Below, one piece after another: positions 11,101 to 59,482 of a stretch of DNA of 64,000 bases. The notes beneath the pieces were generated by a model. It ran no database searches. It saw only the letters and a program-made list of their open reading frames with translations, and was not told the DNA's origin. Numbering within the stretch: position 1 is the first letter of the stretch; each line of letters begins with the position of its first letter. The DNA is from Escherichia coli (GTDB taxonomy: Bacteria; Pseudomonadota; Gammaproteobacteria; Enterobacterales; Enterobacteriaceae), in the NCBI RefSeq assembly GCF_001677475.2, contig NZ_CP015229.1; one strand, written 5' to 3'. A program made the translations under genes and the position numbers.

Positions 11101-12149
11101 CACCGAATCCGACACCAGAGCCGACGCCAGAGCCAACGCCTGTTCCTGACCAGACTCTGGATAATGACCTGCGCCCGGAGGCTGGTGGTTACATCGCGAA
11201 CCTTGCGGCAGCCAACACAATGTTAACCTCCCGACTGCATGAACGTCTGGGGAGCACATACTATACCGATCTGGTCACGGGTGAGCAGAAACAAACCACC
11301 ATGTGGATGCGTCATGAAGGGGGTCACAACAAATGGCGTGATGCAAGTGGCCAGTTGAAAACCCAAAGCAATCGCTATGTTCTGCAACTGGGGGGCGATA
11401 TCGCGCAGTGGAGTATAAGTGGCAACGACCGCTGGCATCTGGGGGTCATGGCTGGTTACGGTAACAGTGACAGCAAGACTATCTCATCGCGCACCGGTTA
11501 TCGAACTAAAGCAAGCGTGAATGGTTACAGCACGGGGTTATATGCGACCTGGTATGCGGATGATGAGTCACATAACGGGGCGTATCTCGACAGTTGGGCG
11601 CAGTACAGCTGGTTTGATAACACAGTGAAAGGGGATGACTTACAAAGTGAATCCTATAAATCAAAAGGATTTACCGCTTCACTGGAAGCTGGATACAAAC
11701 ACAAATTAGCTGAATTTAATGGCAGCCAGGGAACGCGTAATGAATGGTATGTTCAGCCGCAAGCACAGGTTACCTGGATGGGAGTCAAAGCCGATAAGCA
11801 CCGCGAAAGCAACGGAACCCTCGTTCATAGCAACGGTGATGGCAATGTTCAAACCCGACTTGGCGTAAAAACCTGGCTGAATAGCCACCATAAAATGGAT
11901 GACGGTAAATCCCGCGAGTTCCAGCCGTTTGTAGAAGTGAACTGGCTACATAACAGTAAGGATTTCAGCATCAGTATGGATGGCGTGTCCGTCACTCAGG
12001 ATGGAGCCCGAAATATTGCTGAGATAAAAACCGGGGTGGAAGGACAGCTAAATGCCAACCTGAATGTCTGGGGGAATGTGGGCGTTCAGGTTGCCGATAG
12101 GGGATATAATGACACCTCTGCAATGGTTGGCATTAAGTGGCAATTCTGA
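8160..12149 (+). CDS. ehaA: AIDA-I/EhaA-type autotransporter adhesin
   Basis: Extended autotransporter signal peptide (MNKIYRLKWNRSRNCW...), long repetitive beta-helix-like passenger, Pro-rich linker PEPDPMPNPEPNPTPNPTPEPTPEPTPVP, C-terminal beta-barrel ending ...GIKWQF; sits next to betT as ehaA does in O157 genomes (symbol from memory). Confidence 0.75.
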   Translation: MNKIYRLKWNRSRNCWSVCSELGSRVKGKKSRAVLISAISLYSSLVFADDVIVNQDKTIDFGKENQSIDYRITVTDNANLVINATDTSRPRLTLASGGGLDITGGKVTINGPLNFLLKGTGFLNVSNAGSELYADDLYESNSGMRHDRGYFNVSNGGKIHVKGTSRLTYLQGNVSGEGSQVNSKTFFMGVYGSYGGNQYLSVNNGGEVNASEKISLGYYDQVSDTTLAVSEGGKISAPTISLSTNSELALGAQEGSAAKAAGIIDAEKIEFVWAKTSDKKITLNHTDKNATISADIVSGSEGLGYINALNGTTYLTGDNSAFSGKVKIEQNGALGITQNIGTAEITNRGKLHLKAEDSMTFANKISGNGTISIDSGTVELTGNNYAFYGYIDVASDAVAVISEDKNIGRAELDVDGKLQINANKDWVFDNDLEGRGIVEINMGNHEFSFDEFAYTDWFQGSLAFQNTTFNLEKNAEFLQRGGITAGQGSQVTVGKGAHSISSLGFSGGTVDFGALAAGAQMTEGTVNISKTLDLRGEGVIQVSDSDVVRSVSRDIDSALSLTEVDDGNSTIKLVDAQGAEVLGDAGNLQLQDKNGQILSSSAQRDIQQNGQKAAVGTYDYRLTSGVNNDGLYIGYGLTQLDLHATDSDALVLSSNGKSENAADLSAKITGSGDLAFSSQKGQTVSLSNKDNDYTGVTDLRSGTLLLNNDNVLGHTHELRLAAETELDMNGYSQIVGTLNGSADSLLSLNGGSLTVTNGGTSTGSLTGSGELNIQGGTLDIAGDNSNLTANVNIANSANVLVSHAQGLGSANVENNGTLALNNSAEKRAAASVNYTLGGNLTNNGTLMTGMSGQQAGNVLVVKGNYHGNNGQLVMNTVLNGDDSVTDKLVVEGDTSGTTAVTVNNAGGTGAKTLNGIELIHVDGKSEGEFVQAGRIVAGAYDYTLARGQGANSGNWYLTSGSDSPELQPEPDPMPNPEPNPTPNPTPEPTPEPTPVPDQTLDNDLRPEAGGYIANLAAANTMLTSRLHERLGSTYYTDLVTGEQKQTTMWMRHEGGHNKWRDASGQLKTQSNRYVLQLGGDIAQWSISGNDRWHLGVMAGYGNSDSKTISSRTGYRTKASVNGYSTGLYATWYADDESHNGAYLDSWAQYSWFDNTVKGDDLQSESYKSKGFTASLEAGYKHKLAEFNGSQGTRNEWYVQPQAQVTWMGVKADKHRESNGTLVHSNGDGNVQTRLGVKTWLNSHHKMDDGKSREFQPFVEVNWLHNSKDFSISMDGVSVTQDGARNIAEIKTGVEGQLNANLNVWGNVGVQVADRGYNDTSAMVGIKWQF

Positions 12150-12290
12150 TCTGAATAATGAGTAAAAGGAGAGAGAGCCGAACGGGAGATAATTCGGCTC
12201 TCTGTGTCATTTTCTTGCAGCCAGCTTTATCAGTCAGAGTGAAGACTCGCAGATTTAGCTGGCGCACAAGATTTAATCAAGGTGTGTTCA

Positions 12291-13379
12291 ATGGCTTCGC
12301 ATGATTTGAGTGTTTTTTTGGAAGAGTTCGGGGCAACGGTGAATTTGACGTTGCCTGGTATCGTGTCCGAAAAAGAACGGCTTTTACTCAAGCTGCTAAT
12401 GGAGGGAATGTCGGTTACAGAAATCTCACAGTACAGAAATCGCAGTGCAAAGACAATTTCACATCAAAAGAAGCAGCTGTATGAAAAACTAGGCATCCAG
12501 AGTGATATTACCTTCTGGCGGGATATCTTTTTTCAATATCATCCGCAAATCAGCAGTGGCACGGGAAATAAAAATAATTTTTATATCCCTGATAACCGTT
12601 GTCACCATATAGTCACGCCTGAAGCCATCAGTCTGGCGTTGGAAAACCACGAATTCAAACCGTGGATCCAACCGGTTTTCTGCGCGCAGACTGGGGTACT
12701 GACGGGCTGTGAGGTGCTTGTCCGCTGGGAACATCCACAAACGGGAATTATCCCACCGGATCAGTTTATTCCTCTGGCGGAGTCATCTGGTCTTATCGTC
12801 ATAATGACTCGCCAGTTGATGAAACAGACTGCGGATATTCTGATGCCGGTAAAACATTTGCTGCCGGACAATTTCCATATTGGCATCAACGTCTCGGCGG
12901 GTTGTTTTTTGGCTGCGGGATTTGAAAAAGAGTGTCTGAACCTGGTTAAGAAATTAGGTAACGATAAAATCAAACTGGTTCTCGAGCTAACGGAACGTAA
13001 CCCTATTCCGGTAACGCCAGAAGCCAGAGCGATATTTGACAGCCTTCATCAGCACAACATTACCTTTGCGCTGGATGACTTTGGTACGGGTTATGCGACC
13101 TATCGTTACTTGCAGGCGTTTCCGGTCGATTTTATTAAGATCGATAAGTCATTTGTGCAAATGGCGAGCGTGGACGAAATATCCGGTCATATTGTGGACA
13201 ATATTGTCGAACTGGCGCGTAAGCCTGGTCTGAGTATCGTGGCGGAAGGGGTAGAAACCCAGGAGCAGGCGGATTTAATGATCGGCAAAGGCGTTCACTT
13301 TTTGCAGGGCTATTTGTACTCTCCGCCAGTACCGGGTAATAAATTTATCTCTGAATGGGTAATGAAAGCAGGTGGTTGA
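12291..13379 (+). CDS. pdeL: c-di-GMP phosphodiesterase with LuxR-type HTH and EAL domain
   Basis: 362-aa ORF; N-terminal LuxR-like HTH (LLLKLLMEGMSVTEISQYRNRSAKTISHQKK) and C-terminal EAL-domain motifs; conserved position after the bet locus. Confidence 0.85.
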   Translation: MASHDLSVFLEEFGATVNLTLPGIVSEKERLLLKLLMEGMSVTEISQYRNRSAKTISHQKKQLYEKLGIQSDITFWRDIFFQYHPQISSGTGNKNNFYIPDNRCHHIVTPEAISLALENHEFKPWIQPVFCAQTGVLTGCEVLVRWEHPQTGIIPPDQFIPLAESSGLIVIMTRQLMKQTADILMPVKHLLPDNFHIGINVSAGCFLAAGFEKECLNLVKKLGNDKIKLVLELTERNPIPVTPEARAIFDSLHQHNITFALDDFGTGYATYRYLQAFPVDFIKIDKSFVQMASVDEISGHIVDNIVELARKPGLSIVAEGVETQEQADLMIGKGVHFLQGYLYSPPVPGNKFISEWVMKAGG

Positions 13380-13420
13380 TGTAAACCGCTATTCACAGCG
13401 CATCGGGAGGTTGGCAGCGA

Positions 13421-14353
13421 TTAATTCTCCCGATGCAGTAAATCCTGATAGATCCCCGTTAATATGCCATTTGGCGAAAATTGTTTTTTAATCCACTGCG
13501 TCACCTGACCGGTGGCAGAGTGCTGGGTCGCCAGTAACATGCGTGAATCCTGGCGCGGATTATGGATTTGTCGGGTAACCAGCAGGGATTGCGCCATCGC
13601 CTCACGGACCATGTAATCCGGCAAAAAACCAATTCCTTCGCCTAAAATCTGGCACTGACATTTGGTGTTGAAATCTGGCACCAGAATCGACTCCTGCCCA
13701 TGCAGCAACCAGCCCACTTTTTTATTAATCGTATGCGCGGTGTCCTCCACCATGATATTAGGGTAGAGACGCAGCTGGCTTTCGGCGATCGGCTCCGGCA
13801 CAAAGGCTAATGGGTGATCCGGGGCGATAGCAAAAGCCCAGCGAATTGCGCCAATCTCCGTGTAATCAATGCCGCCGCCGTCCAGCAGTGTGTCGGGCGC
13901 GCCGATAGCAATATTCGCCTGATTATTAATAATCGCATCCCAGACGCCGTTATACACTTCGGTCGTCACGGTAATCTGGCAGGTTGGAAACTGCTTTTTC
14001 AGTACCTGTAATAAGCGTGCGGTGTGTTTGGGCGTATAAAGCAGTTGGTTAATACAAATGCGCACCCGTGCTTCTATACCCTGCGAAATAGTATCGATGC
14101 TGCGTTTGATGGCGTGAAAATCATTCAGCAGGTCGGTAGCTTTGCGGAAAAAATAACGCCCGGACTCCGTTAACTCAATGCTTCGGGTACTGCGAGTGAA
14201 CAGCACCACATCCAGCCCCGTCTCCATTCGCTTGATGGTGTAGCTAATGGCGGAAGTGGTTAAACCCAACTCTTCTGCGGCTTTACTGAAACTGCCAAAA
14301 CGCGCAGCGGTAGTAAATGCCAACAGATTCTCTTCGGTAAAAATTGAGTTCAT
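13421..14353 (-). CDS. yahB: LysR-family transcriptional regulator
   Basis: 310 aa; N-terminal LysR HTH (FSKAAEELGLTTSAISYTIKRME) and substrate-binding domain. Confidence 0.8.
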   Translation of the reverse strand: MNSIFTEENLLAFTTAARFGSFSKAAEELGLTTSAISYTIKRMETGLDVVLFTRSTRSIELTESGRYFFRKATDLLNDFHAIKRSIDTISQGIEARVRICINQLLYTPKHTARLLQVLKKQFPTCQITVTTEVYNGVWDAIINNQANIAIGAPDTLLDGGGIDYTEIGAIRWAFAIAPDHPLAFVPEPIAESQLRLYPNIMVEDTAHTINKKVGWLLHGQESILVPDFNTKCQCQILGEGIGFLPDYMVREAMAQSLLVTRQIHNPRQDSRMLLATQHSATGQVTQWIKKQFSPNGILTGIYQDLLHREN

Positions 14354-51538: not shown

Positions 51539-53539
51539 ATGCTTAAATTTCGCCGCGATCTTAACGGTTACGGTGGAGTTATTAACGAAGGGCATAACGA
51601 TCAATACGAATTTGAAATTGCTTTCTCCAGTGAACAGCCTTATCAGCGCCAATTCTGGGATGAGCAAAATCAAGAAATGGTGGTATTAGATGAAATTCTG
51701 GTACATACACCGGAAGCGGTTGATCTGTCTCGTCTGAATAATAACGCTCCGTTGCTGTTCAATCACAATTTCGATAATCACATTGGTGTCGTTTGTAACG
51801 CTCGAATCGATGCGGATAACGTAGGTCGTGCTCTGGTTAAATTCTCCAAGCATGGGACTTTGGCTAATGATATTCGTAACAAAGTCATCGAAGGTACGAT
51901 GGAAAAAATTTCTGTCGGCTATGACATTAAAGAGTATCACATCGACTACGCCAAATCGCAACTCATTGTTTCTAAATGGATTCCTCACGAGGTTTCATGG
52001 GTCACGGTACCCGCAGACGACACAGTGGGTCTGAATCGCTCTCTAAATACTATCACAGTTAATTTGGAGGCTAAACGCGATATGACTAAAGAACAAATCG
52101 AAGAAATCAAAAACGAAGAAGCCGCTCCGGTTGAAGAAACTCCGGTAGAAGAAAATAAAGAACCGGAAGTTGAAGAAACTCAAGAGCGCCAAGTTGAAGA
52201 GAATAAAGAAAATGAAAATCTCGAAGACGGAAAAGACGCTGAACATCCTGAAAGTGTTGATGATGATAGTTCAACTGTTCGGGAAGAAGAAATAAAAGAA
52301 GAACGTGAAGCTGCTCCGGTTGAAGAAGAAAAAATTGAAGAAGTGGCTGAACGTTCCGAAGAAGACGAATTAGAAATCCGCGAGATCGCGCGGGAACTAA
52401 ATATTGATGACTCTGAATTAGCACGTGCATTGTCGATTAAAGACATGACGCCGGAAGCATTCCGCACTAAGGCACTAAATAATCTCGTCAATGCTCAACG
52501 TAATAACGAACAACAAATTAAGGACTCTAAAATGGAAAAAACTTTTGACCTGAACAACGTAATTCGCTCTCTGGTAGATGGTGCTGCTCTGGGTGCTAAC
52601 GAAGCTGAATATTCCGCTATGGCTGCTACTGCAACTATGCAGCGTGGTCGTGCTGCTCGTGGTGGCTCCGTATTCGTTCCGGCTGCTGCTCTGCGTGCTG
52701 CTGCTGCTGGTAACACTAAAGCTACTCTGGAAGCTGTAACCGACGAAAAACTGCTGACTGAATCCTACATCGAAATGCTGATGCCTCAGAGTGTTTTAGG
52801 CCGCCTCGGTGTGACCGTTCTGTCTGGTCTGAATAGCCCGATCGCTGTTCCGAAAATGACTGCTTCCAGCGTTGACGCTTTCGGCTTCGTTGATGAAAAC
52901 GGTGCTGCACCGGAAAGCAAAGCTCAGTTTGAAAACGTGAAAATGGCTCCTAAGACTTTCGCAGGTGGCAACCCGATCAGCCGTCAGTCTCTGAAAACCG
53001 TTCCGGGTATCGCTACCCTGATCACTGATCACATTAACAAAGCTGTTCGCATCAAACTGGAACAACTGATTCTGTCTGATAAAGCTAACGACCGTGGTCC
53101 GGCTGGTCTGGTTAAGCAACTGGTAGACGCGGGTCGCGTTACTAAGAAAGCCGCTTTCTCTTACAAAGACTTCCTGAAAGAAATTGCAGCACTGACCGAC
53201 GCTGGCGTTCCTGCTCAGGCGATCAAGTTTGCGATGAGCGGTGCAACTGCTGCTGAACTGGAATCTACCCTGAAAGATAACGGCGTTTCCGGTTATATCA
53301 TCGAAAACGGCAAACTGGCTGGTTACGAAGTAGTTACTTCTGGTGTTATCCCGGCAGACCACATCGTTCTGGGCGCGTTCGACGGTATCACCATTGGTGA
53401 GTGGGGCGGTCTGGAACTGGATATGGACGACACTACCTACCGTGCACAGTCTGCAATCGTTCCGCGTATCTGGGTAGATCTGGATTACGTTGTAACCCAG
53501 CCGGAAGCTCTGAAAGTTCTCCAGATTGGCGGTGAATGA
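51539..53539 (+). CDS. prohead protease - acidic scaffold - major capsid polyprotein (in-frame, with internal start at 52532)
   Basis: N-terminal S78-like protease motifs (APLLFNHNFDNHIGVV, SVGYD, VSWVTVPADD); E-rich linker; C-terminal ~335 aa with optimised codons and capsid-like composition; internal ATG at 52532 with AAGGA SD. Confidence 0.75.
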   Translation: MLKFRRDLNGYGGVINEGHNDQYEFEIAFSSEQPYQRQFWDEQNQEMVVLDEILVHTPEAVDLSRLNNNAPLLFNHNFDNHIGVVCNARIDADNVGRALVKFSKHGTLANDIRNKVIEGTMEKISVGYDIKEYHIDYAKSQLIVSKWIPHEVSWVTVPADDTVGLNRSLNTITVNLEAKRDMTKEQIEEIKNEEAAPVEETPVEENKEPEVEETQERQVEENKENENLEDGKDAEHPESVDDDSSTVREEEIKEEREAAPVEEEKIEEVAERSEEDELEIREIARELNIDDSELARALSIKDMTPEAFRTKALNNLVNAQRNNEQQIKDSKMEKTFDLNNVIRSLVDGAALGANEAEYSAMAATATMQRGRAARGGSVFVPAAALRAAAAGNTKATLEAVTDEKLLTESYIEMLMPQSVLGRLGVTVLSGLNSPIAVPKMTASSVDAFGFVDENGAAPESKAQFENVKMAPKTFAGGNPISRQSLKTVPGIATLITDHINKAVRIKLEQLILSDKANDRGPAGLVKQLVDAGRVTKKAAFSYKDFLKEIAALTDAGVPAQAIKFAMSGATAAELESTLKDNGVSGYIIENGKLAGYEVVTSGVIPADHIVLGAFDGITIGEWGGLELDMDDTTYRAQSAIVPRIWVDLDYVVTQPEALKVLQIGGE

Positions 53540-53672
53540 ACTCCTGTAGAACCATCTGAACCTTCCCCCGATTTGGGGGAAGAAAATCTGATTCCTGAAC
53601 CGGAAGAAGAATCCCAGACGGTTAAGGCGAAAGCCACAGTTAAAAAACAACGTAAAACTAAAGAATAATAAT

Positions 53673-53701
53673 TAGCCCTGCCTAACGGTGGGGCTTTTTT
53701 G
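53673..53701 (+). terminator. intrinsic terminator after the capsid gene
   Basis: GC hairpin (AGCCCTGCCTAACGGTGGGGCT) followed by TTTTTT. Confidence 0.55.
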
Positions 53702-53730
53702 TATGTAAATACTCCATAAAGGGGGTAACT

Positions 53731-54021
53731 ATGTTCAAATTATCAGAATCACAATTATCAAGAATGTTTAAGAGTGCTCCTGTATTTGTGGTGGAAGGTG
53801 GTAAATCAATTCGTGCTTATCATGAAATTACTACTACCGACGAATCAGGGGTAATGACAGAAACAGAATTTCTATTCTGTCGTGAGGGAGACTTAAAGCA
53901 AGGTGATATTGTCACAGTAGAAAACCAGCGTTTCAAAGTTCAATATATTAAGCGCAATGGTGACAATACAACTGATTGCTTTATTACTCTGGCAGGGGGT
54001 ACACATGCTCGCTACCGTTAA
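53731..54021 (+). CDS. small virion protein (head-tail adaptor/connector candidate)
   Basis: 96 aa; AAGGGGGTAAC SD; follows the capsid gene. Confidence 0.45.
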   Translation: MFKLSESQLSRMFKSAPVFVVEGGKSIRAYHEITTTDESGVMTETEFLFCREGDLKQGDIVTVENQRFKVQYIKRNGDNTTDCFITLAGGTHARYR

Positions 54022-58669: not shown

Positions 58670-59482
58670 GTGCTGGATGTTCATCCCAGTGGTTTTTACG
58701 CCTGGCTTCAGCAGCCGCATTCACAACGCCATCAGGCAGACCTGAGGCTGACAGGGCAGATTAAACAGTTCTGGCTGGAATCGGGATGCGTCTATGGTTA
58801 TCGCAAAATCCATCTGGATCTGCGGGACAGCGGGCAACAGTGCGGAGTGAACAGAGTCTGGCGACTGATGAAACGTGTCGGGATAAAGGCTCAGGTCGGA
58901 TACCGGAGCCCGCGGGCACGTAAAGGCGAGGCCAGTATCGTGTCGCCCAACAGGCTCCAGCGACAGTTCAATCCGGATGCTCCGGATAAGCGTTGGGTAA
59001 CGGACATAACCTACATCAGGACCCACGAAGGCTGGCTGTATCTTGCCGTGGTTGTTGATCTGTTCTCACGCAAAATTATCGGCTGGTCCATGCAATCCCG
59101 GATGACAAAGGACATTGTCCTGAACGCACTGCTGATGGCTGTATGGCGCCGTAATCCCCAAAAACAGGTGCTGGTTCATTCGGATCAGGGCAGTCAGTAC
59201 ACAAGCCATGAGTGGCAGTCGTTCCTGAAATCACACGGCCTGGAGGGCAGCATGAGCCGTCGCGGTAACTGCCATGATAATGCGGTTGCAGAAAGCTTTT
59301 TCCAGTTGTTGAAACGCGAACGGATAAAGAAAAAGATCTACGGAACGCGGGAAGAAGCCCGCAGCGATATTTTTGATTACATCGAAATGTTTTATAACAG
59401 TAAGCGTCGGCATGGTTCCAGCGATCAGATGTCACCGACAGAATATGAAAACCAGTATTATCAACGGCTCGGAAGTGTCTAG
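58670..59482 (+). CDS. IS3-family transposase OrfB (DDE catalytic domain; made as OrfAB by -1 frameshift)
   Basis: DDE integrase-core motifs (…WVTDITYI…, HSDQGSQYTS, …RGNCHDNAVAESFF…). Confidence 0.85.
   Translation: MLDVHPSGFYAWLQQPHSQRHQADLRLTGQIKQFWLESGCVYGYRKIHLDLRDSGQQCGVNRVWRLMKRVGIKAQVGYRSPRARKGEASIVSPNRLQRQFNPDAPDKRWVTDITYIRTHEGWLYLAVVVDLFSRKIIGWSMQSRMTKDIVLNALLMAVWRRNPQKQVLVHSDQGSQYTSHEWQSFLKSHGLEGSMSRRGNCHDNAVAESFFQLLKRERIKKKIYGTREEARSDIFDYIEMFYNSKRRHGSSDQMSPTEYENQYYQRLGSV

Follow-up and report, generated by a model that had tools for sequence, protein, structure and literature searches.

Introduction

Genes in which a prohead protease and a major capsid protein share one reading frame are common, occurring in E. 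coli prophages, marine roseophages, cyanophages, actinophages and therapeutic candidates such as phage vB_EcoM-ep3, and they are annotated as one protein. They have been reported as "fused major capsid and protease" in Rhodobacter phages (PMC8601537), and the SEA-PHAGES annotations include a "capsid and protease fusion". For Pseudomonas phage PAJU2 a "capsid polyprotein" with a proposed autocatalytic cleavage is described, to the extent that the work is cited in PMC8306868. The fused architecture is also already catalogued as NCBIfam NF045541 (scaf_prot_MCP2) and PHROG 4523. In the present work, we analyze such a gene in a stretch of 64,000 nucleotides of Escherichia coli DNA (contig NZ_CP015229.1, assembly GCF_001677475.2; called the window below), where it occupies positions 51539..53539 on the + strand. 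We argue that it is probably a capsid-assembly gene of nested type, belonging to a lambda-like E. coli prophage and specifying two, possibly more, products, the second of which would start at an internal ATG at position 52532.

Other assembly systems are organized differently. In phage HK97, the S78-family protease (gp4) and the HK97-fold capsid protein (gp5) are encoded by two separate genes, and gp5 carries a helical N-terminal propeptide, the 102-residue delta domain, which serves as a built-in scaffold before the protease removes it. In the C/Nu3 arrangement of phage lambda, a protease-containing head reading frame has an in-frame internal start, from which a shorter C-terminal product that is needed in excess, the scaffold, is made. 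Mu I/Z and herpesvirus UL26/UL26.5 are further nested in-frame protease/scaffold genes. The known protease-capsid fusions, on the other hand, have been described as single, autocatalytically cleaved polyproteins, whereas we read the gene of the window as nested. A fusion seems to impose a 1:1 ratio of enzyme to shell protein, which is very unlike the ratios in lambda, HK97 and the herpesviruses. In the full-text literature, we found neither an internal start nor an intragenic codon step described for protease-capsid fusions, which is a weak negative because subscription journals are poorly covered.

Organization of the gene

The open reading frame (ORF) comprises 666 codons and encodes a protein of 73.2 kDa, its sole stop being the terminal TGA at codon 667. 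Upstream of the first codon lies the Shine-Dalgarno (SD) sequence AGGTGAT (51529..51535, + strand), whose duplex with the 3' tail of the 16S rRNA amounts to −10.8 kcal/mol. The protein matches PHROG 617, a family of major head proteins of the fused type, over its full length (E 4.7e-92, residues 21-661 against positions 24-621 of the 626 in the model), and its N-terminal half matches PHROG 4523, "major head and protease protein". The score with NF045541 is 128.8 bits compared to a cut-off of 525, with residues 22-349 aligned to model positions 5-287 of 634. Since this is far below the cut-off, the gene represents a different sequence family with the same architecture. The same order of S78-type protease, linker and HK97-fold capsid protein is found in the known fusions, that is, NF045541, PHROG 617 and 4523, the SEA-PHAGES entries, PAJU2 and gp6 of roseophage R4C.

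To assign the individual parts, we have used an AlphaFold2 model built from a 50-sequence alignment, which has a mean predicted local distance difference test (pLDDT) score of 72.7. The prohead serine protease domain (residues ~20-160, 51596..52018) is modeled confidently over residues 20-159 (pLDDT 70-92), and Peptidase_S78 (PF04586) matches residues 40-162 at 2e-9 in Pfam. The TIGR01543 score of this part is 33 bits, below the cut-off of 59, and a PDB sequence search using the protease domain returned no match. Two alignment columns, His76 and Ser125, are invariant across the family, and these residues would be the candidate catalytic dyad. The domain is followed by an acidic low-complexity linker (residues 161-273, 52019..52357) with 30% Glu and an isoelectric point (pI) of 4.15, which is predicted to be disordered (residues 160-270 in the model). 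Next comes a helical segment resembling a scaffold or delta domain (residues 274-396, 52358..52726; helical over 274-389 in the model).

After a short disordered stretch (residues 391-407), the model contains a confident HK97-type core at residues 408-666, and Phage_capsid (PF05065) matches residues 407-662 at 1e-26 in Pfam. A Foldseek search against the PDB gave the R4C capsid (8gta) as the best match, with an E value of 1.5e-19. Further matches are to HK97, D3, a gene transfer agent (GTA), SaPI1 and other HK97-fold capsids, the E values for 8gta, HK97, D3 and the GTA being in the range of 1e-19 to 1e-12. The predicted mature major capsid protein, delimited by phmmer and Foldseek, comprises residues ~397-666 (52727..53536, ~28.6 kDa). 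The original prediction, which was made from the sequence without database searches, of a protease, a scaffold and a capsid protein in one 666-codon frame is thus borne out by the single TGA, by Pfam and by PHROG 617. The same holds for its parts, namely the prohead-protease-like motifs in the N-terminal ~190 residues, the Glu-rich linker, and the C-terminal part, for which a comparison to HK97-fold capsids had been proposed as a check.

Codon usage and the internal start

We now turn our attention to the abrupt shift in codon usage that had been noticed within the ORF. With the E. coli w-values of Sharp and Li, the codon adaptation index (CAI) rises from 0.365 over codons 1-331 to 0.755 over codons 332-666. 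A least-squares fit places the change-point in CAI at codon 329, only three codons from the ATG at codon 332, with a statistic that was not attained in any of 2000 permutations. A reference-free Dirichlet-multinomial change-point analysis places the split after codon 327 with a log Bayes factor of 13.6, and the effective number of codons is 47.4 for the N-terminal part compared to 31.6 for the capsid part. As these tests are concordant, the step is independent of the table of w-values.

When the Glu and Lys codons are left out, protease and linker have CAI values of 0.30 and 0.26, respectively, and the capsid part one of 0.74, which means that the step is not an effect of the Glu/Lys-rich composition. 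It can also be followed for individual amino acids. Leucine is encoded by CTG in 6 of 14 cases in the protease, 0 of 7 in the linker and 27 of 30 in the capsid part, and glycine by GGT or GGC in 7 of 10, 0 of 1 and 31 of 31 cases, respectively. Over residues 182-331, the counts are 0 of 6 for CAG among the Gln codons and 0 of 7 for CTG among the Leu codons. The codons preferred in the capsid part (GGT, GCT, CGT, CTG, ACT/ACC and TCT/TCC) are the E. coli high-expression set and are not merely richer in GC. For comparison, the other phage ORFs of the window have CAI values of 0.20-0.47, with one exception of ~0.71; the portal gene (0.369), whose product is a 12-copy component, is similar to the N-terminal part, and the host genes of the bet and prp operons are in the range of 0.19-0.42.

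The step coincides with a possible second translation start, which also had been pointed out in the original prediction. The sequence AAGGA (52520..52524, + strand) is located at −12..−8, that is, with a spacer of 7 nucleotides, relative to the in-frame ATG at 52532-52534. The nested ORF (52532..53539, codons 332-666) encodes 335 residues with a mass of 35.1 kDa, and we infer that it specifies the abundant pro-capsid protein. In the AlphaFold2 model, the start falls at the end of a helix (residues 305-334). The RNA around it is unusually open. The folding energy of the 50 nucleotides around 52532 is −0.9 kcal/mol, with 2.2% of the windows of the ORF as weakly structured, and the mean unpaired probability at −18..+10 is 0.71, corresponding to the 97.9th percentile of the ORF.

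Another option considered was an internal sigma-70 promoter giving rise to a shorter mRNA. It was rejected, as no sigma-70 promoter-like site was found on the + strand inside the ORF; a phage-specific promoter is possible, and the translation start would in that case be the same anyway. A protein homologue search with residues 332-666 gave mostly partial or fragmentary entries and no clean stand-alone genes beginning at the homologous methionine.

Comparison with relatives

A scan of IMG/VR provided 80 loci, with identities from 100% down to 29%. In 78 of these, the gene is one intact ORF of 565-670 codons, the other two (L044 and L058) being frameshifted, and an independent contig, L013, carries a gene identical to that of the window. 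Related prophages with 80-95% DNA identity are present in 54-60 of 5426 complete E. coli genomes, where the Prokaryotic Genome Annotation Pipeline (PGAP) annotates the gene as a single "phage major capsid (family) protein" with a length of 666-672 residues. All 11 copies examined from complete genomes are intact single ORFs, which brings the overall length range to 565-672 codons.

Among close relatives, the ATG at the junction between scaffold-like and capsid parts is conserved, and its flanks (caacaaattAAGGActctaaaATG, caaattaatAAGGAacaaatcATG and caaattaatAAGGAatccatcATG) differ yet keep AAGGA at −12..−8. The comparison was extended using the alignment of 50 diverse homologues. Methionine is present at the junction, together with an SD sequence, in 35 of the 50, down to ~30% identity. 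Four to six codons before this methionine there is a near-invariant lysine, whose codon is AAG in 34 of the 35 genes, forming the AAGGA, while the prevailing lysine codon in these genes is AAA (typically 20-35 AAA vs 4-8 AAG). The sole exception, L088, has an AAAGGA built from Lys-Gly codons. In a monophyletic sister clade, the junction codon instead encodes leucine (CTN or TTA), and the same lysine is AAA in all 13 cases. This clade includes phage DCP80, L012 (an E. coli prophage annotated as "HK97 family phage prohead protease") and L045-L059. They have an SD sequence and an ATG directly after the protease domain ("R|MKR", with AAGGA or AAAGG at −12..−8).

The codon step moves together with the start. 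In most genes of the window clade, the CAI change-point is at codons 329-333, whereas the sister clade has it at codons 178-190, 1-6 codons away from the ATG found there. In L047, AAAGGA and ATG are found at codon 309 and the CAI split at 306; in L061, L067 and L074 the splits are at codons 301-307 and the junction ATGs at 296-307. The linker follows the same pattern: it is unoptimised in genes with a junction start and partly optimised in those with a start at the end of the protease (CAI without Glu/Lys 0.35-0.51 vs 0.17-0.29 for the proteases). The pattern recurs in an independent lineage of cultured phages. In E. coli phage vB_EcoM-ep3 (682 codons) and Klebsiella phage KA2-1 (677 codons), GAGGA is followed by ATG at codons 216 and 212, respectively, and both have a CAI split at codon 218, from ~0.40 to ~0.60. 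The statistic for ep3 exceeds all 500 permutations, and that for KA2-1 is 20.0 vs a permutation maximum of 21.5, which is not significant alone. In R4C, an alphaproteobacterial phage, GGAGG-N5-ATG is likewise found at codon 189, just past the protease. On distant homologues from hosts other than E. coli, the Dirichlet change-point analysis has low power, and its splits near codons 56-58 are left uninterpreted.

As a rough estimate, the probability that a random position is as near to an SD sequence with ATG as the change-point is ~0.02-0.05 per lineage, with about five independent lineages. The comparative evidence thus argues that the internal start is functional, and such a start would be the new element with respect to the known fusion architecture.

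Proposed mechanism

The likely nature of the nested product can be derived from the R4C homologue. In phmmer, the capsid chain of PDB entry 8gta (8gta_A) matches with 1.6e-24, and residue 12 of the chain is aligned to residue 408 of the window protein. This chain has 268 residues, while the R4C gene encodes 629, so only the C-terminal part is present in the virions of the homologue. It begins at Gly362 of the precursor; as this is not a methionine, the chain start must be a processed N-terminus, or at least the beginning of the ordered part. By homology to R4C, the mature N-terminus of the window protein would be expected near residue 397. The product starting at Met332 would then carry a helical propeptide of ~65 residues, which is Ala/Arg-rich and basic (pI 9.7), with helices at residues 338-347, 353-368 and 382-389 in the model. 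It is thus probably not the capsid protein alone: the ~270-residue core would be preceded by this propeptide, which would be comparable to the HK97 delta domain but shorter.

Based on these results, the following mechanism can be proposed. Initiation at 51539 would yield the 73-kDa polyprotein, consisting of S78 protease, acidic linker, helical propeptide and HK97-fold capsid protein, as the minor species. Initiation at the AAGGA-N7-ATG of 52532 would yield the 35-kDa pro-capsid protein as the bulk species. The two would co-assemble via their identical capsid domains, and each full-length copy would in this way bring one protease and one acidic scaffold-like arm into the procapsid interior. 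Once assembly is complete, both products would be cleaved by the protease near residue ~397, to give the ~270-residue mature shell protein.

It is instructive to compare this proposal to the systems mentioned above. The neighbourhood of the gene is lambda-like (gpA-type terminase, W-like protein and portal), and, as in C/Nu3, the internal start lies in frame within a protease-containing head ORF. In lambda, however, the nested start gives the scaffold, and a separate gene encodes the capsid protein E, while the frame of the window runs on through the capsid protein. In addition, the lambda protease is of family S49 and that of the window of family S78, and the codon step of lambda is weak. Since the nested ORF comprises propeptide and capsid protein, the arrangement is a variant and not a homologue of C/Nu3. 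The likeness to C/Nu3 put forward in the original prediction is accordingly retained for the internal start with its own ribosome-binding site (RBS) but not for the nature of the nested product. Similarly, the comparative lines favor the nested expression that it suggested, with the capsid part above the level of the full-length protein; the nested product would be longer than the capsid subunit alone that had been envisaged, and the low level of the full-length protein is an argument from codon usage.

The predicted Met332 product resembles HK97 gp5, and the nested product of the sister clade, with linker and capsid protein, is closer still. Compared to HK97, the window gene has no stop separating protease and capsid protein, and its predicted propeptide is shorter (~65 vs 102 residues). 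The strategy itself is that of Gag and Gag-Pol in retroviruses and the yeast L-A virus, in which a minor enzyme-capsid fusion co-assembles and gives a fixed, low enzyme ratio. There, frameshifting or read-through at the 3' end of gag determines the ratio, whereas here alternative initiation on the 5' side would do so, and the proteins are non-homologous. The proposed mechanism likewise shares its logic with herpesvirus UL26 vs UL26.5.

Alternative explanations

It is important to consider whether the data could be explained without the nested product. In the simplest alternative, only the 666-residue precursor is made and the capsid protein is released by autoproteolysis; the codon step would then reflect selection for accuracy or folding, and the AAGGA-ATG would merely encode a conserved Lys-Asp...Met peptide. 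Several observations speak for it. It is the model assumed in the literature for capsid polyproteins (for PAJU2, as cited in PMC8306868), and PGAP annotates one product. In 49 of 50 homologues, whatever the type of start, codon bias is stronger in the capsid part than in the N-terminal part. The full-length RBS, AGGTGAT, is strong by sequence, so the argument for a low level of the full-length product comes from codon usage. Other points further weaken the case for the nested gene itself. In L049 and L057, the splits lie ~30-40 codons downstream of the SD and ATG. The homologues are also phylogenetically related, which means that counts such as 34 of 35 overstate the number of independent events. 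Finally, C/Nu3 was used as a positive control. The CAI changes in the expected direction (0.285 vs 0.402), but the change-point falls at codon 187 instead of the true 239, and with 78 of 1000 permutations reaching it, it is not significant; the method is thus no general detector. Nevertheless, we consider a single polyprotein rather unlikely. The protease would be made 1:1 with the capsid protein, yet its codon usage is ordinary (CAI 0.30-0.34). The step moves with the SD and ATG between clades, the synonymous choice of AAG or AAA covaries with the presence of the ATG, and the RNA is unusually open at 52532.

A variant of the nested reading is that the window clade makes three products, namely the full-length protein, a scaffold-capsid protein starting at Met182 and the Met332 pro-capsid protein. 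The secondary candidate start (52066..52084, + strand) consists of GGAGG (52066-52070), a spacer of 11 nucleotides and the ATG of codon 182. Its SD has the strongest pairing of the internal ones (−9.3 kcal/mol), the local minimum free energy is among the 5.4% least-structured windows, and the sister clade probably uses the homologous position as its main internal start. However, the spacer is long, the unpaired probability reaches only the 60th percentile, GGAGG is GGGGG in L004, L006 and L008, and the methionine is absent in L010 and L011. There is also no codon step at 182, the linker being unoptimised like the protease (CAI without Glu/Lys 0.26 vs 0.30). With neither a step nor conservation of SD and Met, Met182 was discarded as the main internal start of the window clade, in which it is probably minor or unused, and three products appear unlikely. 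One could also imagine that the gene is a relic of a recent fusion or mosaic acquisition, in which the RBS and codon bias of the capsid part have not yet decayed. Module exchange does occur, since L010 and L011 have another protease module, the joint being near codon ~185; this joint, however, is at the boundary of protease and linker and not at the codon step. The fusion is furthermore old, since lineages with 27-30% identity, among them that of an alphaproteobacterial phage, have it in common. Over such distances synonymous sites are saturated, yet SD, ATG and step persist. Together with the preferred codons being the E. coli high-expression set rather than just GC-richer, this makes a relic highly improbable. 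A sequencing or assembly error hiding a stop between protease and capsid parts, the scenario that the original prediction had named against itself, is refuted by the intact frames in the viral contigs and genome copies given above and by the identical gene in L013, and has virtually no probability left. The nested gene is therefore our preferred reading.

Possible read-through of the stop codon

The ORF may not always end at its TGA. Beyond this codon, the frame continues for 42 sense codons (TPVEPSEPSPDLGEENLIPEPEEESQTVKAKATVKKQRKTKE) up to TAA TAA, the whole element being located at 53537..53671 (+ strand). The extension (53540-53665) consists of a Pro/Glu-rich spacer and a Lys-rich tail, and the TAATAA is placed just before an intrinsic-terminator-like hairpin with a T-run, 3' of the capsid gene (53674..53695, + strand). 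All 38 unique relatives from the window clade have TGA-A, an open extension of 28, 42, 43, 44 or 45 codons and a terminal TAATAA. The indels of the extension all have lengths divisible by three, and stops interrupt both other frames. The other clades have a TAA stop and no open extension. The ratio of nonsynonymous to synonymous polymorphism (pN/pS) is 0.73, indicating weak purifying constraint.

These features make UGA read-through a candidate route to a minor, C-terminally extended capsid subunit, which would be larger by ~4.9 kDa. The junction peptide would be ...VLQIGGE-X-TPVEPSEPSPDLGEENLIPEPEEESQTVK, with Trp expected at X. An 8-bp hairpin (CTTCCCCC-GATTT-GGGGGAAG, 53562-53582) is present 22 nucleotides past the TGA; it is stable, with a fold z of only −1.6, and since it is deleted in the short variant of the extension, it is not required for the role of the latter. 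A search of Rfam with 51300-53800 gave no match, and hence no element of the selenocysteine insertion sequence (SECIS) type or other known element after the TGA. The extension is a candidate counterpart of the C-terminally extended minor capsid proteins made by recoding in T7 (10A/10B), the Listeria phages PSA and A118, and Qbeta (A1). T7 and the Listeria phages use frameshifting, while the RNA phage Qbeta uses UGA read-through. For read-through in a capsid gene of a dsDNA phage, no precedent was found in our literature search, in which subscription journals are poorly covered.

Prophage context

The window is part of an E. coli-like chromosome (betABIT, prpBCDE), with the prophage beginning near 39 kb. 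The head module has the order small terminase, gpA-type large terminase, W-like protein, portal and fusion gene, and it is followed by small head-completion genes, a weak "major tail" match and a tail fibre. The prophage extends over ~39-62 kb and looks shorter than the related ones in IMG/VR (~35-38 kb); it may be truncated. The gene for the 975-residue tail fibre is immediately followed by an insertion sequence (IS) transposase gene (58670-59482), and a serine recombinase/integrase gene is found at 60012-61709 on the − strand. The portal stop is separated from the RBS of the fusion gene by 45 nucleotides, which contain a GC-rich stem-loop (CGGGGGCGCAATGCCCCCA, 51501-51519) lacking a + strand T-run. 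This structure could influence how the mRNA is processed, how stable it is, or how accessible the first start is.

A further gene inside the prophage, at 42060..43046 on the − strand and thus opposite to the head genes, has a CAI of 0.706, that is, a codon usage like that of ribosomal proteins. It encodes an acidic coiled-coil protein of 328 residues, annotated as hypothetical, for which no PHROG, PADLOC or significant Pfam match was found. We considered it as a separate scaffold protein and rejected it, the Phage_scaffold match being only 0.009 (coiled-coil level) and the gene being found beside the prophage in 17 complete E. coli genomes vs ~54 with the capsid gene.

Some records of relatives deserve comment. 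The DCP80 genome (L002, Escherichia phage DCP80, PQ671644.1) is classed as a 141-kb member of the Straboviridae (T4-like), and its left end (1-13777) contains a lambda-like large terminase, a portal and a fusion gene 45% identical to that of the window; the record is probably a chimeric assembly or misclassified. In NZ_CP195866.1 (H58) and NZ_OW848980.1 (H43), the fusion gene is split by IS1A or IS903B, and the pieces are listed as distinct genes, "HK97 family phage prohead protease" and "phage major capsid protein", which could mislead comparisons. L010 (E. coli OkiPb01713) and L011 (ETEC1718) are otherwise ~88% identical genes whose protease module (codons 1-185) has given way to a divergent one. 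Their DNA match begins only at query position 692 (codon ~185), which indicates modular recombination at the boundary of protease and linker.

Conclusions

The comparison suggests a more general picture, which we put forward tentatively, as something quite possible but short of probable. Protease-scaffold-capsid fusions may generally be nested genes with several products, in which a conserved internal RBS sets the stoichiometry of enzyme and shell. Placed behind the protease, this site would direct synthesis of a scaffold-capsid product, and placed at the scaffold/capsid junction, that of a pro-capsid protein; lineages would have switched between these two positions. The E. coli prophage clade would add a leaky TGA, for up to four primary products.

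If the nested reading is true, these genes need two coding sequences in the annotation, and the product sizes to be expected in proteomics and cryo-EM change. Capsid engineering would be affected as well, including display on the possible read-through tail. The covariation of an intragenic codon change-point with an SD sequence and ATG may also be a general signal for hidden nested genes. Most importantly, the conserved internal start would resolve the puzzle of the ratio posed by the fusion, allowing little enzyme and much shell protein to be made from one gene, and it would constitute a phage counterpart of the Gag/Gag-Pol principle that acts from the 5' side.

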